Origin: Candidatus Avedoeria danica
GTDB lineage: Bacteria > Chloroflexota > Anaerolineae > Epilineales > Epilineaceae
Assembly (NCBI GenBank): GCA_016703025.1
Contig: JADJCV010000004.1
Span: 299,164 to 363,163 of the forward strand
DNA: 64,000 bases
Reading direction: 5' to 3'
Part shown: positions 28,399-56,518 of the stretch, one piece after another
Layout: every line of letters starts with the position of its first letter
Numbering within the stretch: position 1 is the first letter of the stretch
Made by a program: the position numbers and the translations under genes
Notes under the pieces: model-generated
The model's database searches: none
Told to the model about the DNA's origin: nothing
The model's input: the letters and a program-made list of their open reading frames with translations, nothing else

Positions 28399-28471
28399 TA
28401 CCCCCGGCACGGCTCGAACGTGCGACCTACTGGTTCGAAGCCAGTTGCTCTGTCCACTGAGCTACGGGGGC
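28399..28471 (-). tRNA. tRNA-Arg (anticodon TCG by manual fold)
   Basis: Reverse complement GCCCCCG-TA-GCTC-AGTGGACA-GAGC-A-ACTGG-CTTCGAA-CCAGT-AGGTC-GCACG-TTCGAGC-CGTGC-CGGGGGT-A gives a 73-nt cloverleaf with a T-loop TTCGAGC and anticodon loop CTTCGAA. Confidence 0.8.
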
Positions 28472-29608: not shown

Positions 29609-29758
29609 CGAGCGTTCCTCCGGCGCGCAGCGCTTCGACCGACCGTCCATCGCCCGCTATCCTAAGGGACGCGTCGGGGCCGAGGCAACCTTCACGCCTC
29701 GTGCGGCGTTATACCCGTCGTGCCGGTGGCGCCGGCACGGTCCGCTGGGCAACGTCTG

Positions 29759-29812
29759 TCCGATGGCCGATGTTCGTCCGATGGCCAGCGTTCGTCCGAT
29801 GGCCCGGGTCCG
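29759..29812. repeat. 3 x 18-bp direct repeats (GTCCGATGGCCnnnGTTC) upstream of VWA gene
   Basis: Read directly. Lies 47 nt upstream of the ATG at 29859. Confidence 0.4.
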
Positions 29813-29858
29813 ATCGACTCCTTCCGATCGCAACCTATCGCAACGTCAGGATGCCGCC

Positions 29859-32447: not shown

Positions 32448-33158
32448 TCAATACGGCAGGGATGCCAGGACGATCGCCGCCACCCCGACGGCCGTCCCGG
32501 CGACGACCTGCCGCGGCGTGTGTCGACGGAGCACGACGCGCGCCCACCCGACGGCTAGCGGCAGCGCGAGCCAGAGTGCGATGTCGGCGCCGACGGCTCC
32601 ACTGGTGCCGGCCATCGCGCCGCCGGCGGTGATCGACATTCCGGCGGCAGCGCCGGCCGCGGCGCCGTGCAGGCTGATCTTCCAGCGCAGCGTCACCGCG
32701 CATAGCAGCGCCAGCAGCGCGCTCCACGCGACGCCGAACGCCACGAGCGTCGCCGGACCGCCCAGGTTGGCGAGGACGGCCGTGGACACGACGGCGCACA
32801 ACGTGGCGACGGCGAACGGCAGGTGTCGCTGCCGCCTGTCGGACAGATCGAAGTCGACGACGCGGCCGGCCCGCACGAGCGCGGCCACGACGAGCGCCGG
32901 CGTGACGACGGCCGGCAGCGCGAACATCGCCGCCCACGCCCAGGCCCGCGGCACGGGCGAGCCGTCGATGACGCGCGCGAGGAGCACGAGGGCCACGACG
33001 GGCGGGCAGGCGATGCGCGAGATCCAGACGGCGGTGTGGCGGGACGCGGCGCGGAGCGCGTCGGCGTGCGGGGCGCCGGCATGCGGGGCGCCGACGATTC
33101 CGTGCGGCGGACGTGGAAGCGAGACGGCTGGGAAGGGCCAGTGGGGTCGTACGCTCAT
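32448..33158 (-). CDS. PAP2-superfamily membrane phosphatase-like protein
   Basis: Multiple TM helices. KISLHGAAAG and RVVLRRHTPRQVVAG resemble PAP2 motifs (SGH and SRxxxxHxxxQ/D). Directly upstream of GT4 on the same strand. Start uncertain. Confidence 0.5.
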   Translation of the reverse strand: MSVRPHWPFPAVSLPRPPHGIVGAPHAGAPHADALRAASRHTAVWISRIACPPVVALVLLARVIDGSPVPRAWAWAAMFALPAVVTPALVVAALVRAGRVVDFDLSDRRQRHLPFAVATLCAVVSTAVLANLGGPATLVAFGVAWSALLALLCAVTLRWKISLHGAAAGAAAGMSITAGGAMAGTSGAVGADIALWLALPLAVGWARVVLRRHTPRQVVAGTAVGVAAIVLASLPY

Positions 33159-33286: not shown

Positions 33287-35432
33287 CTACCGCCGCCCCC
33301 AAAACGCCCCCGCCGGACAAGGCAACCGCACCGCGATCGAGCTGTAAATCCCCGCCAACGCCTCCGCATCCGGCGCCACGAACGCATCCGCCGGCCGGCT
33401 AGCGATCGCCCGCAGCGCGTCCACGTCCAGGTCGTACCCGACGCCCACGGTGAACACCGTCACGCCCGCCGCCTTGGCGCGCGCCGCCTCCGCCACCGCC
33501 ACGTCCGCCGGCACCGGGTTCGCGCGGCCGTCCGTGAGGACGATCATCGCCGCGGCGTTCTCGGCCCTGCGCCGCGCCGGGTCGGCGAGCGCTTCGGCGG
33601 CGACGGCGACGGCGCGGTCGAGGCGGGTGAGGGATGCCGTGGTGATGGAGGCGAGCGCGGCGTCGAGGGCGGCGCGGTCATCGGTCAGCGGCTGGAGGAG
33701 CCAGGCGTCGCTGTTGAACGTGACGATCGCGGCCTGATCGCCCTCGGCCAGCCGGAGCGTGCCGAGGAACGTGCGGGCGGCGTCGACGGCGGCGGCGAGC
33801 TTGGTGCGGCCGGCGGCGGTGGGCTCGGTCATGGACGACGAGGCGTCGATGGCGAGGGCGATGTCGACGTGGCGCTCGGTGGGGGTGCAGGATTCGGTGA
33901 GGGCGAGGGGGAGGTAGACGGGGGCGGGGAGGGGTGTGGGGGTCGCGGGGAGGGTCGGCGTGGCGGTTGGGAGGGGTGACGGGGTGGCGGTGGCGCGATG
34001 GGACGGCGTGGGCGTTGGGGTGAGCGTGAGGGTGGTGGGATGCGGTGGGAGGGGGCGTCGGGGAGGGCGGGGGGGTGAGGAGGCCGTTGGCGGTCCAGAT
34101 GTCGCCGGGGAGGTTGTTGCGTACCGTTGAGGCGATGAGCATGCGGCGGAGTTCAAGGCGACGACCGCCATCCAGTACTTCGATGACGGCGAAGTCGCCA
34201 TCGCCATTCTCTTCGGACGAGGCGGCGATCAAGTATTGACCACTGGCGCTCCAGGCAACGGACAGTGATGGCCCACCGGGCGCGCGCGTGAAGGCGCGAT
34301 CACCAGGATAGATCATCGTGTAAGGAGCTCGAATCGGAAGTCGGGCAATCTCACGGGCGATATACGGTCGCTCAGCATCGTAGGCGCGGTCCGAAGGTGA
34401 CATTTCGACAAGTTCGTACACGGCAACGATCGTGTTGGCATGAACAGCCAGGAGGCCACGGTTCAACCACGCATTGTTGAACGCTACGCCTCCCACATAC
34501 TTGAAGTCCGGTGCAAGTGGCACAGTCTGTGCGGTGCGGCTCACAATGTCGATCGCCGCGATGTTTCCGGCGAATTGGCGATTCGTTACGACTAGGTTGC
34601 CGCGCGCGTTCAATGTGGCATGGAGGGCAGGTAGGGATCTGCCATGGCCATAGTAGAAGTGTGGCGGCGAGACGGCGGTCGGGAACGGGATGGGTTCGGC
34701 AAGTTCCGACCAAGTCGCACCATCCATTGACTCAATCGTTCCTCCGTCCGTCATGATGATGACGTGATCATCGCGCCCAGTGGGCAGAATCTCGACGGCG
34801 AGGTGTTCCGTGCGCGGACTGGCGCTCACTGTATCGAGGTCTGGACGCGATCCCCCTGTACTGCTGAATCGGATGCGGTCGATGCCGTAGGGTGGCTGCG
34901 GAATCAAGACATAGCCCTCGGGGCTAACCGCGTATCCTGCTCTGGCGGCAAGAAACGAACCATCAGGCATCGATGAAATCGCACCATACGATGCAAAGTC
35001 AGGGCCGCGCACACGGCCCTCAACAAAGCGACCAGACGAACTTGTGTCCGCGTTTGCAACGATAGCAAACGGTGAACAGGACTTGCTAATGTCGACTTGT
35101 TCTTCGCCAAACCCAAGTCCGCAACCAGAACCAGTTCCCGCGACGATTGTCGAAAGATCGGCCACGGCTGCCATTCGTCCAAGAATATTGTACGTCTCTC
35201 CGCGAAAAATGAGTGCCCCGATGTCGATGTTGTGAATAGTAATGGCTGACATTCCATCATCGGGACGCATGTTTGGATAAACATGGTCGTCGATTAGCAC
35301 CACCGCGCTCAGAGGATCAATGTATGTTTGAGCTCCCGCAATAGTCTCCGCCGCAAATACAATAGATGCAACCCATGCTCCGACAAGAGCGAGGGCCGAT
35401 GAGAGGTCAAGTCTAAGGCGGCACTTTCTCAC
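33287..35432 (-). pseudogene. Cassette A large gene: signal peptide + propeller-like domain + PT linker + VWA, frameshifted in linker (two track ORFs 33678..35432 and 33287..34207)
   Basis: GTG start MRKCRLRLDLSSALALVGAWVASIVFAAETIAGAQ. Compared with copy C there is a 1-nt insertion just after …TPPPTAS (~34045), shifting the VWA part into another frame. Confidence 0.5.
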
Positions 35433-35548
35433 GACAATTCCCCGCGACGGCTAGGTAATGGTGGCAGTGAGCCTCACATTCGCCCACTGCCACCATTACC
35501 CGTCAACGATTAACCATGACTGGCCTACAAGGTGTGAGCGGGTGCCCG

Positions 35549-36304
35549 TTAGTTGTAGATGATGTCCACTTGGGGGCCGCTGGCGCCTGCACACGAGTAT
35601 GTGCATTCGAACGCACCACTATCCGTCGTGCCGAACGTTTGACTGACCGGGCTGACTGATGTTCCTTCGGAGCAGAGCAAAGCGTCGATCTGGTTGCCGT
35701 CATCAACGCTCGTCGTCTCGTACTCCACACGCGACAGATAGCCGTTTACCTGTGGCTGGCAAGAGATGCTGCCGAACACCCCGTTGATCTTCGCCAGATC
35801 CACAACCAACTCGTAGCCCCAGCTGTTGTCGATGCTCATCCCGCTTCCGCAGCCGTATGTGGCGCAGACAGTCACGCCGTAGATCGGGCCGGTAGACGAG
35901 TTGCAGCCGGTGCATGACGCCGACCAACTGTCGGTGGAGTCCGACCAGTCAACATCCACGGTTACCTGGGAAGATGTGGTCGTTTGGCACCTGCAAGGTA
36001 GAGTCTCAAGCAATCGAGAGTCCCAATAGCCGGTGATTGTCCAGGACTCGCCCGTATCCGGCTCCACGGCGACCACGTCGTCTCCGCCCACTTGGTCGTA
36101 GTGGATGACATCGATTGCGGACACCTGGCGGCTAAAGTTGACGCAGTCATTCTGTCCGCAGTACTGTGCGTGGGCGACGTGCGGTGCCAGCGCCACCATC
36201 ACGGCCGCGGCCACCGCCGCAAGGCCAACACTAACGCGAATGGGAATCAGCCGACGCGATGTGCGTCCGATCGGGGGCGGGGAGGAAATAACGGTAAACA
36301 ACAT
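35549..36304 (-). CDS. Cassette A small gene: secreted Cys-rich ~225-aa protein (12 Cys), family unknown
   Basis: AGGAGG RBS. Signal MLFTVISSPPPIGRTSRRLIPIRVSVGLAAVAAAVMVALAPHVAHA|Q. Conserved blocks SAIDVIHYDQ, DVDWSDSTDSWSASCTGCN, ATYGCGSGMSIDNSWGYELVV, FECTYSCAGASGPQVDIIYN. Markedly lower GC than neighbours. Confidence 0.7.
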   Translation of the reverse strand: MLFTVISSPPPIGRTSRRLIPIRVSVGLAAVAAAVMVALAPHVAHAQYCGQNDCVNFSRQVSAIDVIHYDQVGGDDVVAVEPDTGESWTITGYWDSRLLETLPCRCQTTTSSQVTVDVDWSDSTDSWSASCTGCNSSTGPIYGVTVCATYGCGSGMSIDNSWGYELVVDLAKINGVFGSISCQPQVNGYLSRVEYETTSVDDGNQIDALLCSEGTSVSPVSQTFGTTDSGAFECTYSCAGASGPQVDIIYN

Positions 36305-36418
36305 GATCCACTACCTCCTGATTGAGCGGCCTGTAGGGGGCAGACCGCCCGGCGGGTTGCCGGAGGCGTGTACTTTGCCGTCACGGCGGTGGGGAATCCC
36401 GCGGGGATGGACGGGGCC

Positions 36419-36448
36419 AGTCTACCCGGCGATCAAACGCATGTCAAT
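36419..36448 (-). promoter_or_regulatory. Conserved sigma70-like promoter TTGACA-N17-TAGACT ~110 nt upstream of cassette-A small gene (copies also near 39740, 43030, 46300)
   Basis: Minus-strand read ccaTTGACAtgcgtttgatcgccgggTAGACTggcc. The same architecture with 17-nt spacers occurs in the other three units (-10 TAGACT or TAGGCT). Confidence 0.45.
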
Positions 36449-36573
36449 GGCCTTCCAAGAACTCGCGACACCGACACGACAGCCACTCCTGCCTTACCGA
36501 TACCATCGTTGCAGACCGGGGACATTGGCTCGATCCGCCCTGTAAGTTGCTTCCTCCGTCGCACAGCGAGGCG

Positions 36574-38742
36574 CTACCGCCTTCCCCAAAACACCCCCAC
36601 CGGACAAGGCAGCCGCACCGCGATCGAGGCGTAAATCCCCGCCAGCGCCTCCGCATCCGGCGCCACGAACGCATCCGCCGGCCCGCTCGCGATGGCCCGC
36701 AGCGCGTCCACGTCCAGGTCGTACCCGACGCCCACGGTGAACACCGTCACGCCCGCCGCCTTGGCCCGCGCCGCCTCCGCCACGGCCACGTCCGCCGGCA
36801 CCGGGTTCGCACGGCCGTCCGTTAGGACGATCATCGCCGCGGCGTTCTCGGCCCTGCGCAGCGCCGGGTCGGCGAGCGCCTCGGCGGCGACGGCGATGGC
36901 GCGGTCGAGGCGGGTGAGGGAGGCCGTGGCTATGGAGGCGAGCGCGGCGTCGAGGGCGGCGCGGTCGTCGGTCAGCGGCTGGAGGAGCCAGGCATCGCTG
37001 TTGAACGTGACGATCGCGGCCTGATCGCCCTCGGCCAGCCGGAGCGTGCCGAGGAACGTGCGGGCGGCGTCGACGGCGGCGGCGAGCTTGGTGCGGCCGG
37101 CGGCGGTGGGCTCGGTCATGGACGACGAGGCGTCGATGGCGAGGGCGATGTCGACATGGCGTTGGGAGGGGGTGCAGGATTCGGTGAGGGCGAGGGGGAG
37201 GTAGATCGGGGCGGGGAGGTGCGTTGGGGTGGCGGTGGCGGTCGATGATGGAACGGTGGTCGGCGTGAGAGTTGCCGGCACGGGAGTCGGTGTTGGTGTA
37301 TCGGTCGCGGTTGGCGTCAGCGATGATGTCCGTGTTGGTGTGGGGGACGAGGTGGGCGTGGCCGAGGGGCCGATTCGGCCATTGGCGGTCCAAATGTCGC
37401 CGGGGAAACTGTTGCTCGTGGTCGATGCGGCGAGCATGCGTCGCTGCTCGAGGCGGTGGCCGTTGTCGAGCACCTCGATGACGGCGAAGTCGCCGCCACC
37501 GACTTCTTCGGACGAAGCGGCAATGATGTACTGGCCGCTTGTGCTCCACGCGATGGAGTACGACGGGCCCATTGGGGCCTCAGTCAAGGCCCGTGAACGC
37601 CACCACTCGGCGTCGAACGGCCGTCCGATGGACAGACGTGCCACTTCACGCGCAACGTAGGGACGCGCGGGCTCAAACAATGGATCGCCAGCCGGTACTG
37701 CGGACAGTTCATACACTGCTATGAAGCTGTCAGCGTGTACTGCGAGCAGATTGCGATTCACCCAGCCATTGTTGAACGCGACGCCGCCCGTAAACGGAAT
37801 GTCGGGCGCTAGCGTTGCCGTCTGTGCGGTGCGACTCTCCAAATCGATGATGGCGATGTTACCGGCATTGAGGCGATTGGTCACGACGAGTCGTTCGTTG
37901 CCATTCATCGTGGCATGAAGTGCTGGAAGCGGTCGTCCGCGGCCATAGTAATGATTGTCAGGCGCGACAGCAGTCGGAAAAGGGATCGGGGGATCAATTT
38001 CGATCCAATTCGACGCATCCCTTGATTCTATCATGCCGCCATCGGTCATGATAACAACGTGGTCACCTTGTGCCTTGGGTAGAATCTCAATCGCAAGGTG
38101 GTCCATCTTTGGGCTAGAGCTCAACAACACCTTCTGAGGGCGATTCCCTATCGGCCGTCGAAATCGGACCCGGTCGATACCGTACGGCGACTCAGGCACC
38201 AGTGCGATGAATCCGGCGTCCACTTGACGGAAAGCGGCCCTGGCGAGCACAAACGATCCGTCGGGCAATGTGGCATTACCACCAAACCCGGCGAGGTCCC
38301 TGTCGAACAAGCGGGCGTCGGAGTATGGCGGATGGGACCCGGGACTGGCATCGGCAACGACGGCGAATGGAGAGCATGTGATGTCCATTACAGGCAGTTC
38401 GCGCGGGCGCCAGCCACAACCTTCTCCAGACCCAGCCACGATCATCGAAAGATCCTGAGTTGCAGACACCCGCCCAATTCCAACATACGATCTTCCACGA
38501 AACGTGGACACACCCGTTGGAATGTCATGGATCGTAATGGCTCCTTCGCCCTCACCATCACGCGCTTCGGGATGCATGGTGACGTCGATGAGCACCACTG
38601 TATCAACAGGATTCACATCAACAGGGCTATCTGGCGACTGAGCCCTTGCGTGATCAACAAGATGATGGAGAACTTGACCCATACACAAGATTGTAAACAT
38701 CCACGAAACAAAGACTGATGTATTCTGTCGACTCTTATGCAC
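36574..38742 (-). CDS. Cassette B large gene: secreted propeller-like / PT-linker / VWA protein
   Basis: GGGGAGAG RBS then GTG. Signal MHKSRQNTSVFVSWMFTILCMGQVLHHLVDHARA|Q. Divergent N-domain with a conserved VWA C-terminus. The track ORF start at 38817 looks like an upstream extension. Confidence 0.7.
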   Translation of the reverse strand: MHKSRQNTSVFVSWMFTILCMGQVLHHLVDHARAQSPDSPVDVNPVDTVVLIDVTMHPEARDGEGEGAITIHDIPTGVSTFRGRSYVGIGRVSATQDLSMIVAGSGEGCGWRPRELPVMDITCSPFAVVADASPGSHPPYSDARLFDRDLAGFGGNATLPDGSFVLARAAFRQVDAGFIALVPESPYGIDRVRFRRPIGNRPQKVLLSSSPKMDHLAIEILPKAQGDHVVIMTDGGMIESRDASNWIEIDPPIPFPTAVAPDNHYYGRGRPLPALHATMNGNERLVVTNRLNAGNIAIIDLESRTAQTATLAPDIPFTGGVAFNNGWVNRNLLAVHADSFIAVYELSAVPAGDPLFEPARPYVAREVARLSIGRPFDAEWWRSRALTEAPMGPSYSIAWSTSGQYIIAASSEEVGGGDFAVIEVLDNGHRLEQRRMLAASTTSNSFPGDIWTANGRIGPSATPTSSPTPTRTSSLTPTATDTPTPTPVPATLTPTTVPSSTATATPTHLPAPIYLPLALTESCTPSQRHVDIALAIDASSSMTEPTAAGRTKLAAAVDAARTFLGTLRLAEGDQAAIVTFNSDAWLLQPLTDDRAALDAALASIATASLTRLDRAIAVAAEALADPALRRAENAAAMIVLTDGRANPVPADVAVAEAARAKAAGVTVFTVGVGYDLDVDALRAIASGPADAFVAPDAEALAGIYASIAVRLPCPVGVFWGRR

Positions 38743-38863
38743 GCTACTTACTCTCCCCAAGTAGATGGCGGCCGCGGAGGCTGGACGCCAAGCAAGCCTG
38801 CCCCCGCGGCCGCACACTCATCTACTCACATCGGCACGTCCAGACGCCGGTACGGTGCCCAAT

Positions 38864-39613
38864 TCAGTCATACACGATGTCGACTTGTGGCCCGCTCGCC
38901 GCTCCGCACGAGAATGTGCACTCGAACGGGCCGGAGTCGGTAGTGCCGAACGCTTGACTGACCGGACTGACGGCAGTGCTCTCGGAACAGTACAGAGTGT
39001 TGATCTGGTTACCGTCGTCCACGCTGGTGGTTACGTACACGACGCGGTTGAGGAACGACGGGTTGGAGCCCCCGCCACAAGTGGACCCATTGTTTTCATC
39101 GACGCTCACGACTAGTTCGTAGCCCCAACCGTTGTCAATGCTCATGCCGCTGCCGCACCCGTACGTACTACAGATGGCGACTCCGCGCACTGGCCCAGCG
39201 AACGCATTGCAGCCAGTGCATGTGGCCGACCAGCCAGTGCTATCTGACCAGTCCACCGCTACATACACGACAGCGTTGCTGACAGCATCGCAGTCACACC
39301 AAATCGGATCACTGCCGAGTTGGTTCCAATACGCCGTTATCGTCCAGTGTTCGCCCGTGTTAGGCTCAACGGGTACAACCTCAGTATCGTCGATCTGGTC
39401 GTAGTGGATGACGTCGATGGCAGACACTTCGATTACAGCGGTTGAACAGTCATTGCGGCCACAGCCACCCTGAGCGTACGCGGCCTGCGGTGCCAGCGCC
39501 GCCATCACAGCTGCGGCCACCGCCGCAAGGCCAACGCTAACGGGGATGGGAATCAGCCGACGCGACGTGCGTCCGATAGGGGGCGGGGGAGGGGATATAA
39601 CGGTGAACAACAT
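38864..39613 (-). CDS. Cassette B small gene: secreted Cys-rich protein paralog
   Basis: MLFTVISPPPPPIGRTSRRLIPIPVSVGLAAVAAAVMAALAPQAAYA|Q. Same Cys pattern as the 35549..36304 gene. The track ORF extends to 39694 through in-frame leader sequence. Confidence 0.7.
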   Translation of the reverse strand: MLFTVISPPPPPIGRTSRRLIPIPVSVGLAAVAAAVMAALAPQAAYAQGGCGRNDCSTAVIEVSAIDVIHYDQIDDTEVVPVEPNTGEHWTITAYWNQLGSDPIWCDCDAVSNAVVYVAVDWSDSTGWSATCTGCNAFAGPVRGVAICSTYGCGSGMSIDNGWGYELVVSVDENNGSTCGGGSNPSFLNRVVYVTTSVDDGNQINTLYCSESTAVSPVSQAFGTTDSGPFECTFSCGAASGPQVDIVYD

Positions 39614-39883
39614 GATCAAGTACCTCCTGATACGGCGGCCTGATTGGGGGCAGACCGCCCGGCGGGTTTCCGGAGGCGTGTACTTTGCCGTCACGGCGGT
39701 GGGGGATCCCGCGGGGATGGACGCGGCCAGTCTAACCGGCGATCAAGCGCTTGTCAATGGCCTTTCAAGAATTCGCGACACGGAAACGACATCACTTCCT
39801 GTCTTTCGGAGGCTTCCATGGGAGACTGCGGAAATTGGCTCGATCCGCCCCGAAAGTCGCTTCCTCCATCGCAAGTCACTCAC

Positions 39884-42043
39884 CTACCGCCTTCCCCAAA
39901 ACGCCCCCGCCGGACACGGCAACCGCACCGCGATCGAACTGTAAATCCCCGCCAGCGCCTCCGCATCCGGCGCCGTGAACGCATCCGCCGGCCCGCTCGC
40001 GATCGCCCGCAGCGCGTCCACGTCCAGGTCGTACCCGACGCCCACGGTGAACACCGTCACGCCCGCCGCCTTGGCCCGCGCCGCCTCCGCCACCGCCACG
40101 TCCGCCGGCACCGGGTTCGCGCGGCCGTCCGTGAGGACGATCATCGCCGCGGCGTTGCCCGCACTGCGCCGTGCCGGGTCGGCGAGCGCCTCGGCAGCGA
40201 CGGCGACGGCGCGGTCGAGGCGCGTGAGGGATGCCGTGGTGATGGAGCCCAGCGCGGCGTCGAGGGCGGCGCGGTCGTCGGTCAGCGGCTGGAGGAGCCA
40301 GGCGTCGCTGTTGAACGTGACGATCGCGGCCTGATCACCCTCGGCCAGCCGGAGCGTGCCGAGGAACGTGCGGGCGGCGTCGACGGCGGCGGCGAGCTTG
40401 GTGCGGCCGGCGGCGGTGGGTTCGGTCATGGACGACGAGGCGTCGATGGCGAGGGCGATGTCGACGTGGCGTTGGGAGGGGGTGCAGGACTCGGTGAGGG
40501 CGAGGGGGAGGTAGATGGGGGCGGGGAGTGGTGTTGGCGTGGCGGTGAGGGAAGGCGTGGCGGTGGGGAAGGGCGATGGGGTGGCGGTGGCGAGGGGGGA
40601 AGGCGTGGGCGTTGGGGTGAGCGTGGGGGTGGGGGATGCGGTGGGCGTGGGCGTTGGGGAGGGCGGGGGGGTGAGGAGGCCGTTGGCGGTCCAGATGTCG
40701 CCGGGGAAGTTGTCGCGGGTGGTGGATGCCGTGAGCATCCGGCGGTACTCGAGCGTGCGCCCGTCGTCCATTACCTCGATGACCGCGAAATCGCCATCGC
40801 CGGTGTCCTCCGATGATGCGGCGATGAGATAGCGACCATCCGCGCTCCAGGCGATCGAGTACGCCGGGCCAAAGGGCGCGACGGTGAGCGCACGAGTTCG
40901 AAGCCAACTGGAGTTGATGGGCCGCCGAATGCTGAGTCGGGATAGCTCCGCGGCTTCGTACGGCCGCGCGGGATCGTACGAAGCATCGCTCGTCGGAACG
41001 GGAGACAGTCGGTATACAGCCACGTACTCGTCCGCGTGGACTGCCAGCAGATCATCGTTCAGCCACGCATTGTTGAATGCGACGCCGCCTGCGAATCGGG
41101 CGTCTGGCGCCAATGTTACGGTTTGAGCAGTGCGTGCCACCAAGTCGACAAGAGCGATGTCGCCGGCAATCAGTCTGTTGGTCGCGACGAGGCGCTCCTC
41201 GGAATTCATAGTTGCGTGGAGAGCGTGGATTGGGCGTCCCTTTCCGTAAGACATGTGATCGGGAGCCGTGGCCGTTGGAAATGAGATTGCTGCACCCATC
41301 GGCGACCAAGTATCGATGTTGAATGACTCGATGGTGCCGCCATCTGTAAGCACAATAATCGTTTTGTCATCTCGAGTAGGTAGAATTTCTACCGGAAGAT
41401 GATTTAGGTTGGAACTTGAGTCGACTCGTTCAATTTGCGGATAGTTGGAAATCGGACCCTTGAATCGTATGTGATCGAGGCCAAATGGTGGCTTCGGAAC
41501 GACGACATTAAACGGAATGTCGTGTCGAATCTGCTGTCCGGAACGAGTCATTATGAAGGTGCCATCAGTCAGCGCGGCAACGCCGCCGAACGGTGCATAG
41601 TCACGGTCGCGTGAACGGCCATCCACAAGGCGCGAAGATGAATCCAGCTTCCACTCTGCCAGGAGCGCGAATGGTTTGCACCTTTGGTCGAAGTCCCCTG
41701 CCCAAGTGGCCTCATCGACTCGAAACCCACAGCCCTCGCCCGGCCCGGCGATCAGCATTGACAAGTCGCTGGACGCCGCCATCCTTCCTAGTCCAAGATA
41801 CGATCGTCCGCGTACAAGCGATTCGCCGTTATCCACATTGTGAATCGTCAGCGCCCCTTGTCCATCATATGGCCGCGACAACGATCCCGTTAGCGTAACA
41901 TCAATGAGTACCACGGCTCTCACAAGATCAGGTAACGTTTGCGCGTGTACACGAATAACTACCGCAATAGCCAATCCAATCATCGACAGCCCGGTGACAA
42001 GGATTCCTGTGATCGCGTGGAGCCGAGGCGCCTTTCGATTCAT
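39884..42043 (-). CDS. Cassette C large gene: secreted propeller-like / PT-linker / VWA protein
   Basis: MNRKAPRLHAITGILVTGLSMIGLAIAVVIRVHA|Q. Intact single ORF of 719 aa. Confidence 0.7.
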   Translation of the reverse strand: MNRKAPRLHAITGILVTGLSMIGLAIAVVIRVHAQTLPDLVRAVVLIDVTLTGSLSRPYDGQGALTIHNVDNGESLVRGRSYLGLGRMAASSDLSMLIAGPGEGCGFRVDEATWAGDFDQRCKPFALLAEWKLDSSSRLVDGRSRDRDYAPFGGVAALTDGTFIMTRSGQQIRHDIPFNVVVPKPPFGLDHIRFKGPISNYPQIERVDSSSNLNHLPVEILPTRDDKTIIVLTDGGTIESFNIDTWSPMGAAISFPTATAPDHMSYGKGRPIHALHATMNSEERLVATNRLIAGDIALVDLVARTAQTVTLAPDARFAGGVAFNNAWLNDDLLAVHADEYVAVYRLSPVPTSDASYDPARPYEAAELSRLSIRRPINSSWLRTRALTVAPFGPAYSIAWSADGRYLIAASSEDTGDGDFAVIEVMDDGRTLEYRRMLTASTTRDNFPGDIWTANGLLTPPPSPTPTPTASPTPTLTPTPTPSPLATATPSPFPTATPSLTATPTPLPAPIYLPLALTESCTPSQRHVDIALAIDASSSMTEPTAAGRTKLAAAVDAARTFLGTLRLAEGDQAAIVTFNSDAWLLQPLTDDRAALDAALGSITTASLTRLDRAVAVAAEALADPARRSAGNAAAMIVLTDGRANPVPADVAVAEAARAKAAGVTVFTVGVGYDLDVDALRAIASGPADAFTAPDAEALAGIYSSIAVRLPCPAGAFWGRR

Positions 42044-42154
42044 GGACTTTCGACTCCTGAATGGCGGGAGCAGCGAAGACGCACTTTCGCCTCCGCTGCT
42101 CTCGGCTCACCGTAGTGACTCCGAATTCAATTGTCGACCTAGGTCAGCACAGCG

Positions 42155-42899
42155 TCAGTTGTAGACGATGTCCACCGTAGGGCCACTCGCGACACCGCAC
42201 GAATTGGTGCACTCGAACGGACCGCTGTCGGTAGTGCCGAAGGCCTGCGAGATTGGACTGACCGCAGTGCTTTCGGAGCACAATAGGCCATTGATCTGGT
42301 TGCCGTTGTCGACGCTGGTTGTCACGTACTCAACCTCCGAAAGGAAGCCGTCCACGGCCCCATTGCACGTCGTCCCGTTTTTCTCGTTCAAGCTAACAAC
42401 GAGCTCATAACCCCAGCTGTTGTTGATGCTCATCCCGCTGCCGCAACCATACGTTGTGCAGATCGTAACCCCAAATACGGGGCCGACGAACGCGTTGCAT
42501 CCTGTGCAGGTTGCAGACCAGCTGTTGGTGGCATCTGACCAATCCACCGCTACATCGACCTGAGCCGTGGCCGTATGATCGCAGTCACACTGCTCTGGCG
42601 CACCGTGGGTCGAGCCCCAATACGCAGTGATCTCCCAGTCTTCGCCAGTATTGGGCTCGACTGCGATCACTGTGGTGGGGTTGATCTGGTCGTAGTGAAT
42701 GACATCTATGGCGGAAACTTCAATCGTGCCGGGCGCACAATCGTCTTCGCCGCAGTATTGTGCGTACGCCGCCTGTGGTGCCAGCGCCGCCATCACGGAC
42801 GCGGCCATCACCGCAAGGCCAACGCTAACGCGGATGGGAATCAGCCGACGCGACGTGCGTCCGATCGGGGGCGGGGGGGGATATAACGGTAAACAACAT
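42155..42899 (-). pseudogene. Cassette C small gene: Cys-rich protein paralog with +1 frameshift in a C8 (plus-strand G8) tract just after the start codon
   Basis: ATG TTG TTT ACC GTT ATA TCC CCC CCC GCC… shows one extra C relative to the in-frame paralogs (TCC CCT CCC CCG), giving a stop after 24 codons. The track ORF restarts at internal MMAASVMAALAPQAAYAQ. Confidence 0.5.
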
Positions 42900-43169
42900 G
42901 ATCCAGTACCTCCTGATACGGCGGCCTGTATGGGGGCAGGCCACTCGGCGGGTTGCCGGAGGCGTGTACTTTGCCGTCACGGCGGTGGGGGATCCCGCGG
43001 GGATGGACAGGGCCAGTCTACCCGGCGATCAAACGCTTGTCAATGGCCTTTCGAGAACTTGCGACACCGAAACGACATCACGTTCTGCCTTATCGAGACG
43101 TCCGTTGCAGACCGGGAAAATTGCCTCGATCCGCCCTGCAAGTCGCTTCCTCCGTCGCAAGCCGAAGCG

Positions 43170-45317
43170 CTACCGTCTCCCCCAAAACGCCCCCGCCGGA
43201 CAAGGCAACCGCACCGCGATCGAGCTGTAAATCCCCGCCAACGCCTCCGCATCCGGCGCCACGAACGCGTCCGCCGGCCGGCTCGCGATCGCCCGCAGCG
43301 CGTCCACGTCCAGGTCGTACCCAACGCCCACGGTGAACACCGTCACGCCCGCCGCCTTGGCGCGCGCGGCTTCGGCGACGGCGACGTCCGCCGGGACGGG
43401 GTTCGCGCGGCCGTCCGTGAGGACGATCATCGCCGCGGCGTTCTCGGCCCTGCGCCGCGCCGGGTCGGCGAGCGCTTCGGCGGCGACGGCGACGGCGCGG
43501 TCGAGGCGGGTGAGGGATGCCGTGGTGATGGAGGCGAGCGCGGCGTCGAGGGCGGCGCGGTCGTCGGTCAGCGGCTGGAGGAGCCAGGCGTCGCTGTTGA
43601 ACGTGACGATCGCGGCCTGATCGCCCTGGGCCAGCCGGAGCGTGCCGAGGAACGTGCGGGCGGCGTCGATGGCGGCGGCGAGCTTGGTGCGGCCGGCGGC
43701 GGTGGGCTCGGTCATGGACGACGAGGCGTCGATCGCGAGGGCGATGTCGACGTGGCGTTGGGAGGGGGTGCAGGATTCGGTGAGAGCGAGGGGGAGGTAG
43801 ATGGGGGCGGGGAGGGGCGTCGGGGTGGCGGTGGAGGAGGGCGTGGCAGTCGGGAAGGGCGATGGGGTGGCGGTGGCGAGGGGAGACGGCGTGGGTGTGG
43901 CGGTGAGCGTGGGGGTGGGAGAGGCAGTGGCGGTGGGCGTCGGGGAGGGCGGGGGGGTGAGGAGGCCGTTGGCGGTCCAGATGTCGCCGGGGAGGTTTTC
44001 GCGGACAGTTGAGGCGACTAGCATGCGGCGGAGTTCAAGGTGCCGCCCGTCATCTAGAACCTCGATGACGGCGAAGTCGCCATCGCCGTTCTCTTCCGAG
44101 GCGGCGGCGATCAAGTACTGGCCACTTGCACTCCAGGCAATTGAAAGGGAAGGACCACTGGGGGCATTCGTGAAAGCACGATTGCCGGGATAATCAGAAT
44201 TGTAGGGTGCTCGAATCGGCAGTCTTGCGATCTCGCGCGCCACGTAAGGGCGCGAAGCATCGTATGCCGCGTCCAAGTTGGACATCGCTACAAGTTCGTA
44301 CACGGCCACCAGCGTGTTGGCGTGTACAGCTAGAAGGTTGCGGTTTAGCCACGCGTTGTTGAACGAAACGCCGCCCACATACTTGAGGTCCGGCGCCAGT
44401 GCAACGGACTGTGAAGTGCGGCTGACGACATCGATCGCTGCGATGTTGCCAGCGAATTGACGGTTCGTTACAACAAGGCCTCTGTGCGTATTCATCGTGG
44501 CATGAAGCGCAGGCAGAGATCGTCCTTGGCCAAAGTAATAGTGCGGCGGTGAGACTGCTGTCGGGAACGGGATTGGTTCGGCAAGCACCGACCAGGTTGA
44601 GACGTCCATCGCCTCGATCGTCCCACCGTCCGTCATGATGATGACCTCATCACCACGACCAGTTGGCAGAATCTCGACTGCGAGGTGGTCGGTTCGCGGG
44701 CTGGCGCTGACCGTGTCGATCCCGGCACGCGTCCCAACGTTGCGCCGGAAATGAACACGATCGATGCCAAAGGGCGGTTGCGGCAACATGACCAGGCCAA
44801 TGTCATGAAGGGCGTATCCCGCCCTGGCGAAGAGGAACGAGCCATCCCGCATGGCAGCGACTGCACCATAGGTTGCAAAGTCGCGGCCGCGAACGCGCCC
44901 TTCCTGGAACAGTTCCGGCCCGGTACTATTCAACTCTGCGACAATGGCGAACGGGGAACATGAATTGAAGCCGTTGATCTGCTCTTCGCCAAAATGAAAC
45001 CCACAATTGTAGCCGGTGCCGGCAGTGACAAATGACATGTCTGGCGATGCGGACATCCGCCCCAAAGCGCTGTATGTTTTGCCTCGAAAAATACGCGCGC
45101 CGCTTTCAATATTGTGTATGGTAAGGGCCGACATGCCATCATTGGGCCGCACGTTGGGTGAGATATGGTCGTCGATGAGAATTACCGAATGGAGCACGTC
45201 GATCGAGGTCTGTGCGCGCGCGGCATTGTGTGTCGTGAAAGCTACAGCGGTTACGCAAGTTCCTCCCAATGCGATGGCCAGGACTGTGGGAACTCGACTG
45301 CGCAAGCCACTCATCAC
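43170..45317 (-). CDS. Cassette D large gene: secreted propeller-like / PT-linker / VWA protein
   Basis: MMSGLRSRVPTVLAIALGGTCVTAVAFTTHNAARA|Q. 715 aa. N-domain most similar to copy A. Confidence 0.7.
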   Translation of the reverse strand: MMSGLRSRVPTVLAIALGGTCVTAVAFTTHNAARAQTSIDVLHSVILIDDHISPNVRPNDGMSALTIHNIESGARIFRGKTYSALGRMSASPDMSFVTAGTGYNCGFHFGEEQINGFNSCSPFAIVAELNSTGPELFQEGRVRGRDFATYGAVAAMRDGSFLFARAGYALHDIGLVMLPQPPFGIDRVHFRRNVGTRAGIDTVSASPRTDHLAVEILPTGRGDEVIIMTDGGTIEAMDVSTWSVLAEPIPFPTAVSPPHYYFGQGRSLPALHATMNTHRGLVVTNRQFAGNIAAIDVVSRTSQSVALAPDLKYVGGVSFNNAWLNRNLLAVHANTLVAVYELVAMSNLDAAYDASRPYVAREIARLPIRAPYNSDYPGNRAFTNAPSGPSLSIAWSASGQYLIAAASEENGDGDFAVIEVLDDGRHLELRRMLVASTVRENLPGDIWTANGLLTPPPSPTPTATASPTPTLTATPTPSPLATATPSPFPTATPSSTATPTPLPAPIYLPLALTESCTPSQRHVDIALAIDASSSMTEPTAAGRTKLAAAIDAARTFLGTLRLAQGDQAAIVTFNSDAWLLQPLTDDRAALDAALASITTASLTRLDRAVAVAAEALADPARRRAENAAAMIVLTDGRANPVPADVAVAEAARAKAAGVTVFTVGVGYDLDVDALRAIASRPADAFVAPDAEALAGIYSSIAVRLPCPAGAFWGRR

Positions 45318-45430
45318 ATACTCCGGCGTTCATGGAGGGCGGCGGCGTTAGGCCGACAACTCGGCCACACGCCGTCGCCCCGATCAGTGACGTTCTCTCC
45401 AAGGCTCGCTGGAACTGACCGGTGGCCCGC

Positions 45431-46183
45431 TCAGTTGTAGATGATGTCTACCTGCGGTCCGCTGGCGCCCGCGCACGAGTAGGTGCACTCGAATGCACCA
45501 TTGTCTGTCACGCCAAACGACTGGCTGATCGGACTTACAGCCGTGCTCTCAGAACACAGGAGTCCGTTAATCTGGTTGCCATCATCGACGCTCGTAGTCA
45601 CGTACTCTACGCGCGTCAGATATCCGTTCACGCCCGGATTGCAGGAGATGCTGCTGAACATTCCATTGATCTTCAGCACGTCAACAACCAGTTCGTACCC
45701 CCAACTGTTGTCAACGCTCATCCCGCTGCCGCAGCCGTACGTGGCACAGACGGTAACGCCATAGATCGGCCCATTCGTCGGGTTGCAGCCCGTGCAGGAT
45801 GCCGACCAGCTATCGGTGGAGTCGGACCAGTCAACATCGACGGACACAGATGCCGAGTTCGTCTGTTGGCACTGGCAGGCGAGTGGATTCGCCAGCAGCG
45901 AGTCCCAGTAAGCCGTGATCGACCACGTCTCTCCGGTGTCCGGCTCCACCGCTACGACGTCATCGTCGTCGATCTGGTCGTAGTGGATGACATCGATCGC
46001 GGACACTTGGCGGTTGAAGTTGACGCAGTCATTGCGTCCACAGGTCTGCGCATACGCCGCCTGCGGTGCCAGCGCCGCCATCACGGCCGCGGCCACCGCC
46101 GCAAGGCCAACACGAACGCGGATGGGAATCAGCCGACGCGACGTGCGTCCGATCGGGTTGGGGGATACAAAGGTAATCGACAT
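45431..46183 (-). CDS. Cassette D small gene: secreted Cys-rich protein paralog
   Basis: AGGAGG RBS. MSITFVSPNPIGRTSRRLIPIRVRVGLAAVAAAVMAALAPQAAYA|Q. The track ORF extends to 46264. Confidence 0.7.
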   Translation of the reverse strand: MSITFVSPNPIGRTSRRLIPIRVRVGLAAVAAAVMAALAPQAAYAQTCGRNDCVNFNRQVSAIDVIHYDQIDDDDVVAVEPDTGETWSITAYWDSLLANPLACQCQQTNSASVSVDVDWSDSTDSWSASCTGCNPTNGPIYGVTVCATYGCGSGMSVDNSWGYELVVDVLKINGMFSSISCNPGVNGYLTRVEYVTTSVDDGNQINGLLCSESTAVSPISQSFGVTDNGAFECTYSCAGASGPQVDIIYN

Positions 46184-46565
46184 AATCCAGTACCTCCTGA
46201 TAGGACAGCCTGATTGGGGGCAGGCCGCCCGGCGGGTTGCCGGAGGCGTGTACTTTGCCGTCACGGCGGTGGGGGATCCCGCGGGGATGGATGGACGGAG
46301 GGAAGCCTACAGGCACTCGGCGCGGGTGTCAATAGGTGCATGCGTTGTTGAACTGTGGAATCCAATGAATAATTTACAATTCCTTCTCGACATCCGCACA
46401 GTTGACGACGCTTTGAACTGCACAGAGTGCACGACACTCAGGCGCGAAAGGACATCTGACTGACTAGGTTCTCTTCAACTCTATCGAAGTTACAGTTCGC
46501 ATGCCTGTAACACTCGCGTGCAATCTGTCGCACATTGATCGCGCCGCAGTTCCACCGCGTGTCTC

Positions 46566-48554
46566 TTACCGCCGCCCCCAAAACGCCCCCGCCGGACAAG
46601 GCAACCGCACCGCGATCGAGCTGTAAATCCCCGCCAACGCCTCCGCATCCGGCGCCACGAACGCATCCGCCGGCCGGCTAGCGATCGCCCGCAGCGCGTC
46701 CACGTCCAGGTCGTACCCGACGCCCACGGTGAACACCGTCACGCCCGCCGCCTTGGCGCGCGCCGCCTCCGCCACCGCCACGTCCGCCGGCACCGGGTTC
46801 GCGCGGCCGTCCGTGAGGACGATCATCGCCGCGGCGTTCTCGGCCCTGCGCCGCGCCGGGTCGGCGAGCGCTTCGGCGGCGACGGCGACGGCGCGGTCGA
46901 GGCGGGTGAGGGATGCCGTGGTGATGGAGGCGAGCGCGGCGTCGAGGGCGGCGCGGTCATCGGTCAGCGGCTGGAGGAGCCAGGCGTCGCTGTTGAACGT
47001 GACGATCGCGGCCTGATCGCCCTCGGCCAGCCGGAGCGTGCCGAGGAACGTGCGGGCGGCGTCGACGGCGGCGGCGAGCTTCGTGCGGCCGGCGGCGGTG
47101 GGCTCGGTCATGGACGACGAGGCGTCGATGGCGAGGGCGATGTCGACGTGGCGTTGGGAGGGGGTGCAGGATTCGGAGAGGGCGAGGGGGAGGTAGATGG
47201 GGGCGGGGAGGGGCGTGGGGGTGGCGGTGGGGGAAGGAGTGGCGGTCGGGAAGGGCGTTGGGGTGGCGGTGGCGAGGGGGGACGGCGTGGGCGGGGCGGT
47301 GAGCGTGGGGGTGGGGGACGCGGTGGGGGTGGGCGTTGGGGAGGGCGGGGGGGTGAGGAGGCCGTTGGCGGTCCAGATGTCGTTGGGGAGGTTTCCGTTC
47401 TCGGTACATGCAGTCAGATAGCGTTCAATCTCAAGGTCCCGCCCGTCGTCTCGCACGTCGATGACGACAAACTCGGCGTCATCATGATCGGTAGCGGCGA
47501 TGATGTGTGTTCCTCGTGAGGACCATGCGACCGAGAAAAGGGGTCCGGCGGCCGCGGATTCGACCACGCTCAATCCTTGCTTTGCAGCGTTGCTCGGCGG
47601 ATCAATCGCGATCCGTCCAACTTCGCTAGCCGTCGAGTCGGCCATTAGACGATAGACGACCACTAGATCCATAGCATGTACGGCTAGTAGTCCGGAATTG
47701 ATCGGGCCGGCATTGATAGATACGCCATCCACAAAACGTAGATCAGATGACAGCGGGACAACTACTGATTTGCGCGTTGCCACGTCAATCATGGCGATGC
47801 TCGGGGATAGCATCCGATTGACGATGATACGTCGCCCGTCGGCCATGATCGTCGCATGCATTGCTCCGATTGCCGCCTTCCCTCCATACGGACGACTATA
47901 TCCTGACACCGCAGTCGGATACGGGATGGGAGGCTCCGCCCACTTCATCGTACTCGTGTCAATGACTCCAACACTGCCATTGGATTGAACAATTGCCGTA
48001 AATCGTGAATCCGCAGTTCGAAGGAACTCAATCGGCAAAGATGCGATGGCCATGCGCCCGAGTTGTAGTGCAAGAGCATCTCGATTCGCGATAGCCGCGG
48101 GTAACGTGATGCGAGCAACAAAGTAGGGCGACCTTGGGACAAGAATGCTTGCACCATCGTTGAGATCATAGCCAGCCTCGGCGACCAAGAGCGTTGAATC
48201 GCGCAGGAATGCAATGCCTCCCATCGTGCCAAACTTGTTGCCGCGAATCCGCCCCGTTGAGAAGCCTCCTCGACTGCCATCAACGGCCGTGAGGGCGATG
48301 AGTGCTGGCGTGCAATCCGGTGGATTGGGTTCGCGAAAGCTCACTGCGCAGCTATTGCTCAACGTGCTAATCATCACCGACGCATCATCTCGAACTGCCA
48401 GTCTACCCGGAGACACGAGGGTGTCGCTACTCTGAATTCGTGAACCGTCCACTATGTTGAATACCGAGATTGCATCACATCCGGCTGAGTCCATTGCCAG
48501 ATCTTCCGTGACGACTACCAGGTCCTCAAGTTGGACTTCGGTCTGAGCCCCCAC
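46566..48554 (-). CDS. Terminal (5'-most) large paralog E: divergent propeller-like domain + PT linker + identical VWA; no recognisable signal peptide and no small-gene partner
   Basis: GTG start directly after an in-frame TGA. The N-terminal 450 aa is much more divergent than in A-D. VWA and linker match copy A at DNA level. Confidence 0.55.
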   Translation of the reverse strand: MGAQTEVQLEDLVVVTEDLAMDSAGCDAISVFNIVDGSRIQSSDTLVSPGRLAVRDDASVMISTLSNSCAVSFREPNPPDCTPALIALTAVDGSRGGFSTGRIRGNKFGTMGGIAFLRDSTLLVAEAGYDLNDGASILVPRSPYFVARITLPAAIANRDALALQLGRMAIASLPIEFLRTADSRFTAIVQSNGSVGVIDTSTMKWAEPPIPYPTAVSGYSRPYGGKAAIGAMHATIMADGRRIIVNRMLSPSIAMIDVATRKSVVVPLSSDLRFVDGVSINAGPINSGLLAVHAMDLVVVYRLMADSTASEVGRIAIDPPSNAAKQGLSVVESAAAGPLFSVAWSSRGTHIIAATDHDDAEFVVIDVRDDGRDLEIERYLTACTENGNLPNDIWTANGLLTPPPSPTPTPTASPTPTLTAPPTPSPLATATPTPFPTATPSPTATPTPLPAPIYLPLALSESCTPSQRHVDIALAIDASSSMTEPTAAGRTKLAAAVDAARTFLGTLRLAEGDQAAIVTFNSDAWLLQPLTDDRAALDAALASITTASLTRLDRAVAVAAEALADPARRRAENAAAMIVLTDGRANPVPADVAVAEAARAKAAGVTVFTVGVGYDLDVDALRAIASRPADAFVAPDAEALAGIYSSIAVRLPCPAGAFWGRR

Positions 48555-48672
48555 CCGTTCAGGTCATAGAAGCCGGAGCGCCATGGTGGCAATCAAGGTG
48601 ACGGAGAGCCACTCGGCCCCGCGAGCGGGTCGGGCGCAGAAGTGACGATGGCCAGTGGGCGACCATCGCGCG

Positions 48673-48696
48673 AGAGACGAGCGCCCGGAGGCTTCA
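48673..48696 (-). terminator. Perfect 11-bp inverted repeat GCCCGGAGGCT-tc-AGCCTCCGGGC downstream of the 48952..52623 gene
   Basis: GC hairpin. The flank is only weakly U-rich. Confidence 0.3.
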
Positions 48697-48787
48697 GCCT
48701 CCGGGCGGTCGTCGGTTGCGCGGGGACCTGCCCGTTTACCCCGCTTCCCACGCCGTCGCACGCCCCGCCACACACCGTGTACTTCGT

Positions 48788-48853
48788 GTCACACGCCAGT
48801 GCACACCGCGTCACACGCCAGTAGACTTCGCGTCACACGCCAGTGCATCTGCC
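48788..48853. repeat. 3 x 22-bp direct repeats (GTCACACGCCAGTrnannnncnc) in the region upstream of paralog E
   Basis: Units read as gtcacacgccagtgcacaccgc, gtcacacgccagtagacttcgc and gtcacacgccagtgcatctgcc. Confidence 0.4.
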
Positions 48854-48951
48854 GCCGCACGCCCGCGCGCTTCGAGACACACGCCACCCGGCCCTTCGTT
48901 CCACGCTGTGCGGGTTGGAGGACAAACACGGTCTGCGTCGGCGCACCGCAC

Positions 48952-54073: not shown

Positions 54074-54149
54074 CCCGTCCTCCTTCGGTGCAGGCCGTTC
54101 CGGCGTGCGAACACCGGTGACGGGGCCGAAGGATAGCACGCAACCCGAA

Positions 54150-54370
54150 CCCGCCAAGTAGGGGCGGGGCCCCGTGCCTGCCCTCCCTCCACCCACCCCC
54201 CATTCCCCCAACGGCCCCCACGCCCACCCACCCGTCTCCCCCACGCCCACCTTGCCGTTCCCCCACCCAATGGCAGCATGCCCCGGTGCACCACCCCCCG
54301 GTCCCCCCGCTCATCGGCCACCCCCCCCCCGACGCCCCCGCCCCCGCCCCCGCCCCCCCCGTCACCATCA
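54150..54370. promoter_or_regulatory. Extremely C-rich (plus strand) divergent intergenic/5' region with C10 and C9 homopolymers between sufE and the DAO-family gene
   Basis: Read directly. Contains cccccccccc near 54321 and ccccccccc near 54353. Confidence 0.3.
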
Positions 54371-56373: not shown

Positions 56374-56518
56374 CCCCCATGTTCGAACTCGACGGCGCCC
56401 AACCGGGCGCCGCTGGACGTCAGACACCGTTTCGACCCGCCCGGGTCGCAGCGCGCGCCACCGCTATACTGCCGCGCCGCTCGCCCGAGGGCAACATCGG
56501 CCGCGCGCCGTGCGGCCG

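Follow-up and report, generated by a model that had tools for sequence, protein, structure and literature searches.

In this study, we analysed a 64,000-nucleotide stretch of contig JADJCV010000004.1 of Candidatus Avedoeria danica (the window, at its full length), in which the minus strand between positions 33287 and 48554 carries an array of five large and four small genes, as found by open reading frame (ORF) listing and repeat finding. The array repeats a conserved, unnamed two-gene module for secreted proteins, namely a small protein with 12 cysteines and a large protein that combines a predicted beta-propeller, a Pro/Thr (PT) linker and a C-terminal VWA domain. About 200 clusters of the small family are present in public data, and the novelty of this family as well as of its pairing with a propeller-VWA protein holds. 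According to the reading which we prefer, and to which we assign a probability of about 0.4, the units would encode cognate extracellular binding pairs on a constant VWA anchor.

Layout of the array and its two proteins

Each small gene lies upstream of its large partner, which gives the units s1-A', s2-B, s3-C and s4-D, and the fifth large paralog E is located at the head of the array. All genes are on the minus strand; ORF and hidden Markov model (HMM) evidence is given where it was used for the call:

33287-35432, minus: large paralog A', present as two ORFs (33678-35432 and 33287-34207) with a frameshift in the PT linker near 34036
35549-36304, minus: small gene s1, 251 aa (ORF, HMM)
36574-38817, minus: large paralog B, intact; true start probably downstream of the listed GTG (ORF, Pfam, HMM)
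38864-39613, minus: small gene s2 (ORF, HMM)
39884-42043, minus: large paralog C, intact, 719 aa; used for the AlphaFold2 model
42155-42899, minus: small gene s3, frame broken; poly-C run at 42873-42880
43170-45317, minus: large paralog D, 715 aa, intact (ORF, Pfam, HMM)
45431-46183, minus: small gene s4, signal peptide and 12-Cys protein with two predicted beta-sandwiches (ORF, HMM)
46566-48554, minus: large paralog E with propeller, PT linker and VWA, without small partner (ORF, Pfam VWA, HMM)

The period of the units is 3286-3396 nt, with start-to-start spacings of 3287, 3310, 3286 and 3396 nt, which agrees with an earlier note on this DNA that had described four consecutive minus-strand units of about 3.3 kb plus a fifth large paralog. 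Purpose-built HMMs recovered the module order small, propeller, VWA along the array. An origin of the array by assembly collapse or expansion was ruled out by a second assembly (GCA_963852785.1), which runs collinear with the window for 21.9 kb (99-99.6% identity) and has an equal number of units, and by a short-read contig of another sample (L022), which bridges more than one unit, running from one into the next (fetched loci are given here as L numbers, proteins as P numbers). Intact copies of B, C, D, s1, s2 and s4 with identical or almost identical sequence are found in the second assembly. The product of s1 is identical to P0005, a hypothetical protein of a metagenome-assembled genome of the Ardenticatenales (Chloroflexota). 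The GC content of the array is 58-66% (34000-48000) versus 69-76% in the flanks and about 72% in the window, and this drop is limited to the variable parts of the units. Two ORFs of 390 and 437 aa lie antisense over the VWA/PT regions (39644-40816 and 42699-44012, both plus strand); they were regarded as by-products of high GC content because of their Arg/Gly-rich translations and the lack of a codon-position GC signal.

The small protein consists of a signal peptide and a mature part of about 205 aa, somewhat shorter than the approximately 225 aa estimated earlier, and ends in ...GPQVDIIYN. All 12 cysteines of the mature protein are at least 90% conserved in close relatives, as the earlier note had described, and 8 of the 12 are conserved in an alignment of 96 family members. 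The structural model is all-beta with two sandwich domains (predicted local distance difference test score, pLDDT, 70.6; predicted template modelling score 0.72) and has no significant fold match in the PDB. Also, no family match was obtained in Pfam, with the window copies and all 96 family members as queries, nor in NCBIfam or PADLOC. A profile search of 1.84 billion representative proteins detected 202 clusters, defined at 50% identity, at E <= 0.001; nearly all of them are standalone proteins of 200-250 aa, annotated as 'hypothetical' where named. Since no known family was matched while 202 clusters were found, the small protein represents a real, unnamed family, and the earlier statement that it belongs to no recognisable family stands. 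An assignment as a divergent GEVED domain was rejected: the hhalign probability was 0.1% against both GEVED-domain proteins of locus L006, and none of the 96 members matched GEVED (PF20009).

For the large proteins, VWA (PF00092) was the only Pfam match and scored above the gathering score in every copy tested. The AlphaFold2 model of C (mean pLDDT 80) is beta-rich in the N-domain (residues 40-455), disordered in the PT linker (469-519) and continues with the VWA domain (527-710). In this model, the N-domain belongs to the seven-bladed beta-propeller fold. The metal ion-dependent adhesion site (MIDAS), DxSxS...T...D, is complete in all five copies, being formed by DASSS, the T of LTRLD and the D of LTDG, and it is kept in homologues. 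The VWA domain is flanked by the conserved cysteines C520 (invariant) and C710 (at least 90% conserved), which, by analogy to the A domains of vWF, suggests a C520-C710 disulfide clasp around it; the proteins end in ...PCPAGAFWGRR. The nearest VWA structures are extracellular adhesin and matrix domains (Mfa5, PTMP1, ANTXR2, vWF A3, LapA, SpaC and PitA). Thus, Pfam, AlphaFold2 and the structure matches agree with the secreted propeller, Pro/Thr linker and C-terminal MIDAS-containing VWA domain read from the sequence before. The large proteins of the array are members only of the VWA superfamily and of the seven-bladed propeller fold.

Conservation of the pairing and evolution of the units

For the detection of further pairs, loci were found with a 24-sequence subset of the 96-sequence small-protein alignment, and each fetched locus was searched, as six-frame ORFs, with HMMs for small protein, propeller and VWA domain. 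In L001 (three times), L002, L009, L011, L012, L015, L018, L019, L020 and L022 (twice), a propeller-VWA gene follows a small gene on the same strand. According to the called genes, L024 contains a single pair of a small and a VWA-containing large gene between housekeeping genes, and on the contig of P0179, which among the family members listed is the most distant one, a gene for a 1228-aa VWA protein comes after the small gene. Altogether, about 13 further contigs showed same-strand pairing, at identities as low as about 30%, which answers the concern of the earlier note that the pairing might occur in no other genome. The sole exception was L013, in which the gene next to the small gene is a convergent VWA gene. 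The literature searches yielded no paper describing the module and none on Ardenticatenales in connection with VWA domains or adhesins.

Relatives of the large protein occur also in other contexts. P0017, encoded in this genome, follows ftsK without a small partner, and in L006 a relative of the P0020 type is preceded twice by a GEVED-domain protein with a 4-nt stop/start overlap (8616-12343 and 15258-18364). The secreted partner of the propeller-VWA protein may therefore vary. The region in L006 appears prophage-like, with a terminase, ParE/Phd, a DNA methylase and many tiny ORFs. A phage origin of the module was rejected, as scans of viral contigs with the small and with the large alignment were empty and a phage-like context was seen only in L006.

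The units of the window are mosaics of constant and variable parts, a contrast already noticed earlier and reproduced by the identity profile. Among the units, VWA and PT linker are 92-98% identical, and promoter, leader and the signal peptide of the small protein 87-90%, while the mature small protein shows 57-73% and the propeller 40-68% identity. In the codon analysis, synonymous divergence (dS) of the propeller ranged from 1.35 to saturated with a ratio of non-synonymous to synonymous divergence (omega) of about 0.1-0.4, and the small protein had a dS of at least 1.56 and an omega of about 0.1. The saturated dS of the variable parts together with omega below 1 indicates that the paralogs are old and under purifying selection. 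For the VWA domain, dS was 0.01-0.18 and omega 0.06-0.58, with a dS of 0.012 even between E and A' at opposite ends of the array; this low divergence indicates that the constant end is kept alike through gene conversion. No sign of pervasive positive selection was obtained, in a test that is weak because saturated dS hides site-specific selection. A recent amplification under positive selection was rejected in view of the saturated dS and of omega values well below 1, also between strains. Accordingly, the description as an amplified, diversifying module could not be maintained, and 'old cassettes with concerted evolution of the constant end and cassette turnover between genomes' should replace it.

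The same mosaic pattern is repeated in L001, an unrelated locus, with identities of 95-98% for VWA, 64% for the propeller, 68-75% for the small protein and 84-100% for the upstream region and leader, and here the units are separated by other genes. Between them lie a gene for a group II intron reverse transcriptase, DUF433 genes and an SNase-like gene. One unit of L001 (5061-9788) looks disrupted: its small gene is split between two frames, and its propeller is cut into 6024-6374 and 8352-8987 by an inserted minus-strand gene for a 551-aa protein without Pfam match. Remnants of the VWA 3' end (the last 27-30 codons, approximately) are located upstream of small genes lacking a preceding large gene (L001 303-383 and 4457-4537; L009 9345-9437), for which reason the duplicating or moving unit seems to begin inside the VWA 3' end. 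In the window, the only repeats found were whole units, with divergence spanning the entire small gene and the propeller. With regard to a diversity-generating retroelement, no reverse transcriptase was found among the window ORFs scanned, some small ORFs being outside the scan.

Between genomes, the contrast of constant and variable parts is inverted. From s2 through the propeller of B, the window, the related genome SJ541 (L009) and L022 differ from one another at 0-1 positions per 150 nt, so that this cassette is 99.3-99.9% identical in three contexts (propeller part 99.5-99.7% in L009 and L022), whereas the attached VWA differs at 6-12 positions per 150 nt in all three comparisons (5-8%; B VWA 94.4% identical). 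The dS of flanking genes between the window and SJ541 is 0.16-0.25. At the syntenic site, SJ541 has just the s2-B-type unit, in front of which a VWA 3' remnant and an E/s4-type spacer are located, and at the position of E it contains only a degenerate VWA 3' remnant of about 150 nt. In L022, the s2-B-type unit is followed by a gene resembling s4 (87% identical) and by a new variant of the propeller (67% identical). The simplest reading of these sequences is that cassettes of small gene and propeller are gained, lost, reordered and exchanged via recombination in the two constant segments. In a comparison of the window at 46566-55315 with the near-identical assembly L008, dS was about 0.03-0.04 in E and the gene of a 1280-aa VWA protein versus 0.002-0.005 in B, C and D; this uneven divergence suggests recombination tracts even between very close strains.

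Promoters, frame defects and neighbouring genes

Every unit has its own promoter-like site in front of its two co-oriented genes, as in a two-gene operon, in line with the dedicated promoters proposed before. The following elements were located upstream of the genes:

36419-36447, minus: sigma-70-like promoter of s1-A', TTGACA-17-TAGACT (promoter scan)
39729-39757, minus: sigma-70-like promoter of s2-B, TTGACA-17-TAGACT (promoter scan)
43015-43043, minus: sigma-70-like promoter of s3-C, TTGACA-17-TAGACT, 10 of 12 matches; conserved in the alignment
46305-46332, minus: promoter-like site of s4, TTGACA-17-TAGGCT, read from alignments, under the scan threshold
39614-39722, minus: 5' leader of about 110 nt with AGGAGG 7 nt before the ATG; a constant cassette flank
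48564-48566, minus: in-frame stop in the ancestral signal peptide of E, translated as ...WLSVTLIATMALRLL*PERVGAQT

The leader is almost invariant across the four units, with 87-90% identity in the alignment and identity profile. The longest-ORF starts of s2 and s4 are artefacts at upstream GTG codons, the real start being the ATG 7 nt after AGGAGG. A structured RNA in the leader was rejected: covariance models gave no relevant Rfam match at E <= 1 between 31000 and 49500, the folding energy was no better than that of shuffled sequences (z = -0.25), and the conservation was not seen in distant loci. In L001, the promoters of small genes contain a run of G10-G12 between -35 (TTGACT) and -10 (about 800-830 and about 9950-9975), and a G run, here shorter and interrupted, was seen at the equivalent place ahead of the small gene of L002 (about 360-390). 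The promoters of the window are without this G run. In other bacteria, a G run between -35 and -10 makes promoter strength phase-variable through slippage.

Three genes of the array have frame defects in this assembly. The frameshift of A' lies in a repetitive stretch of the PT linker within which the second assembly has other indels, and as the indels differ between assemblies, sequencing error is likely. In s3, the poly-C run at codons 4-6 after the start is C8 here and C9 in the second assembly, with only C7 or C10 being in frame, and an intact allele (P0001, 247 aa, 99% identical) is present in an ENA assembly. The run is subject either to homopolymer miscalling or to a translational on/off switch; if both are long-read assemblies, an under-called C10 run is the likeliest cause. 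Taken together, the frame breaks of A' and s3 are probably sequencing errors. In SJ541, the corresponding tract of s2 has one C fewer.

The defect of E is of a different kind, since its stop codon is identical in both assemblies. The in-frame stop interrupts the signal peptide and leaves E without an export signal, so that E is probably a pseudogene or not exported. Its propeller is of a divergent 'mainstream' type with 33-36% aa identity to A'-D and resembles in the alignment the distant homologues P0015-P0017. E thus does head the array without a small partner, as had been described, although not as an intact gene.

Downstream of the array on the same strand, two genes follow:

32448-33158, minus: membrane protein, 236 aa, with weak PAP2-like motifs (17.5 bits versus a cut-off of 27.2, E = 0.0035; C-terminal motifs only)
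31260-32390, minus: glycosyltransferase of family 4 (GT4; Pfam Glyco_trans_1_4 106.6 bits, Glyco_transf_4 86 bits)

In the second assembly of this genome (L007), both neighbours are likewise found at the locus, and for SJ541 (L009) synteny is indicated by matching ORF sizes and DNA alignment only. In L001, L002, L022 and L024, the pair occurs without them. GT4 enzymes act in the cytoplasm. As the neighbours are not tied to the pair and GT4 is cytoplasmic, the suggested glycosylation of the PT linkers by these proteins, one of which matches PAP2 only below threshold, is unsupported and pure speculation.

With four more VWA proteins beyond the array (10728-14168, 29763-31253, 48952-52794 and 56519-60607), the window is unusually rich in this domain. 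One of the four also has FG-GAP and CARDB domains, and two others have VWA domains in tandem together with N-regions that resemble propellers (weak SGL match); these genes are interspersed with genes for S8 and M3 peptidases and a thioredoxin-like protein. A motif xYLP[LFA]xxR is common to many secreted proteins of this genome. It lies between PT linker and Cys-ended C-terminal VWA in 48952-52794, 56519-60607 and 10728-14168 (minus strand) and was also found in 55402-56427, 28427-29650, 61932-63854, 8858-10978 and 14238-19016. In 55402-56427 it stands just after the signal peptide (NYLPLVLRG), and in some window proteins at the very C-terminus (LFLPFASSSGR*, FMPFAVRGVRR*). The motif may be a lineage-specific sorting or processing signal.

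Possible function and relation to known systems

Export of both products is suggested by their N-terminal signal peptides, the conserved cysteines and the PT linkers. From the same-strand adjacency down to about 30% identity and the co-inheritance of the variable parts, we infer that small and large protein function together. In the proposed mechanism, both proteins would act together outside the cell, presumably in physical contact; the variable small protein and the variable propeller would set what is bound, while the constant PT-VWA end would serve for a shared, metal-dependent attachment or assembly on the cell envelope or in the floc matrix. Other secreted proteins of the window end in a PT linker, YLPxAxRxxC and VWA behind different N-domains, and this C-terminal module, which they share with the array proteins, fits a generic role in anchoring or assembly. 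One genome could thereby display several binding specificities on a common anchor. The leader/signal-peptide and PT-VWA segments, homogenised within the genome by gene conversion, would be the sites at which units are gained, lost, reordered and, as it appears, exchanged.

Several points weigh against the cognate binding pair. The large relatives P0017 and P0020 lack the small partner, so that pairing is not obligatory for the large family, and three of the nine array genes carry the frame defects described above in this assembly. The VWA domain could be the ligand-binding end instead of the anchor, and conserved His, Asn, Asp and Arg residues of the propeller (H336, N454 and others) could mark an enzyme active site. 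Furthermore, the near-identity of cassettes across genomes could in part result from assemblies switching strains at the VWA and leader repeats.

The conserved polar residues lead to another explanation, in which the units encode secreted isoenzymes: a lactonase- or hydrolase-like propeller would act on extracellular polymers, the small protein would be an accessory subunit, folding helper or inhibitor, the VWA domain a tether, and the paralogs would differ in substrate. Structural neighbours of the propeller indeed include 6-phosphogluconolactonase, the hydrazine synthase beta subunit and nitrous-oxide reductase, and invariant His, Asn and other polar positions, enzyme-typical omega values of about 0.1-0.2 and the abundance of secreted peptidases in the neighbourhood would suit an enzyme. 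However, non-catalytic WD40 and G-beta propellers match structurally just as well, no enzyme family was matched in Pfam or NCBIfam and the conserved residues fit none of the testable catalytic motifs, which makes a catalytic function doubtful. Self or partner recognition between multicellular Chloroflexota filaments also seems unlikely as the function. As a polymorphic self/kin recognition or contact-dependent conflict locus, the array would encode ligand-receptor pairs of small protein and propeller on the filaments, with cassette types as compatibility groups under balancing selection and ancient specificities passed on by recombination in the leader and PT-VWA flanks. This would jointly explain the deep divergence of the cassette types, the purifying selection on each of them and the fact that one type is almost identical in genomes which otherwise differ by 7-10%, with flanking genes at the dS of 0.16-0.25 given above. 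Unit content and order vary between related populations, both variable genes are always co-inherited, and the lineage of the source organism, which is filamentous and multicellular, would be suited to it. Yet four or five types in one genome are unlike a single-specificity locus, positive selection was not detectable in the weak test with saturated dS, and the identity across genomes could be an assembly artefact. Also, there is no toxin or immunity domain, and PADLOC gave no match for the large, small, PAP2-like and GT4 proteins; a defence system was rejected on this ground, and the conflict module considered in the earlier note received no direct support.

By analogy with pili, the Ig-like small protein might polymerise as the shaft of a fibre with the propeller-VWA protein as tip adhesin, and the VWA matches do include the pilus tip adhesins Mfa5, SpaC, PitA and PilB. 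We consider this very improbable, as both proteins lack an LPXTG signal and a membrane anchor at the C-terminus, a scan of the 27 larger ORFs of the window detected neither a sortase nor a pilin-type signal nor genes for pilus assembly, and the small protein appears to rely on its 12 cysteines in place of the isopeptide-forming residues of pilins, no search aimed at a pilin motif having been made. Hardly any weight falls on the explanation that there is no joint function at all and the array is a decaying or neutral paralog expansion, perhaps inflated by assembly, with adjacency reflecting joint duplication. The stop codon in the signal peptide of E, the frameshifts of A' and s3 in this assembly and the fact that SJ541 appears to manage with one unit would be in line with decay. 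The adjacency, on the other hand, is kept at about 30% identity in many unrelated contigs including the single-copy L024, omega is well below 1 in both variable genes, the remaining genes B, C, D, s1, s2 and s4 are preserved in the second assembly, and the defects of A' and s3, located in repeats or homopolymers, are not the same in the two assemblies, as would be expected of sequencing errors.

The binding-pair reading was also compared with described systems. Integrin alpha subunits with an I-domain and bacterial FG-GAP-VWA proteins likewise combine an extracellular seven-bladed propeller and a MIDAS-containing VWA domain in one chain, with a Cys-rich partner chain. In the array, however, VWA follows a PT stalk at the C-terminus and does not interrupt the propeller, the small partner with its two sandwiches bears no resemblance to integrin beta, there is no membrane anchor, and no FG-GAP match was obtained in any array protein at E <= 0.1 in Pfam. 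A true FG-GAP-CARDB-VWA protein is encoded elsewhere in the window, at 10728-14168 (FG-GAP_3 match). The tip adhesins PilY1/PilC resemble the large proteins in having VWA and propeller in one secreted protein with small accessory genes adjacent, and the VWA structure matches include the streptococcal minor pilin PilB. The VWA domain of PilY1 is N-terminal, so that the domain order of the array is reversed; in addition, neither Pfam nor NCBIfam gave a PilY1/PilC match, and the small protein has an ordinary signal peptide and not the prepilin leader of type IV minor pilins. In sortase-dependent pili (SpaC, PitA, RrgA, GBS104), the gene of a VWA adhesin lies beside that of an Ig/CnaB-like protein, and such proteins are top structural neighbours of both array products, but LPXTG-type signals are missing from the array proteins and the small protein contains 12 disulfide-forming cysteines instead.

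With pilE/pilS, vls, MgPa and the orphan cassettes of contact-dependent inhibition (CDI) and Rhs loci, the array shares variable modules between recombining constant segments, concerted evolution and strain-varying content, and as in CDI/Rhs toxin-immunity genes two variable genes travel together. Unlike silent cassettes of the pilS type, the array units are complete genes with their own promoter; variation affects their N-terminal part while the C-terminal part is constant, and the host is a free-living wastewater filament without the immune pressure acting on a pathogen. The best NCBIfam matches, the BatA/BatB type (49.6 versus 380 bits) and 'acidobact_VWFA' (36.9 versus 81 bits), are far under their cut-offs. 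Bat proteins are membrane-anchored and without propeller, and we know of no small partner described for them.

The source organism is a member of a little-studied group of filamentous bacteria which shape the flocs of activated sludge. Even if the proposed function is not true, the small proteins would still be a well-defined family for structural genomics, and if the recognition of filaments applied, the locus would be a bacterial counterpart of two-gene recognition loci like tgrB1/tgrC1. If cognate pairs on a VWA anchor are true, the module would offer a way to study the attachment of these monoderm filaments to surfaces, matrix or one another, and it would represent an environmental, non-pathogen case of cassette-based surface variation.

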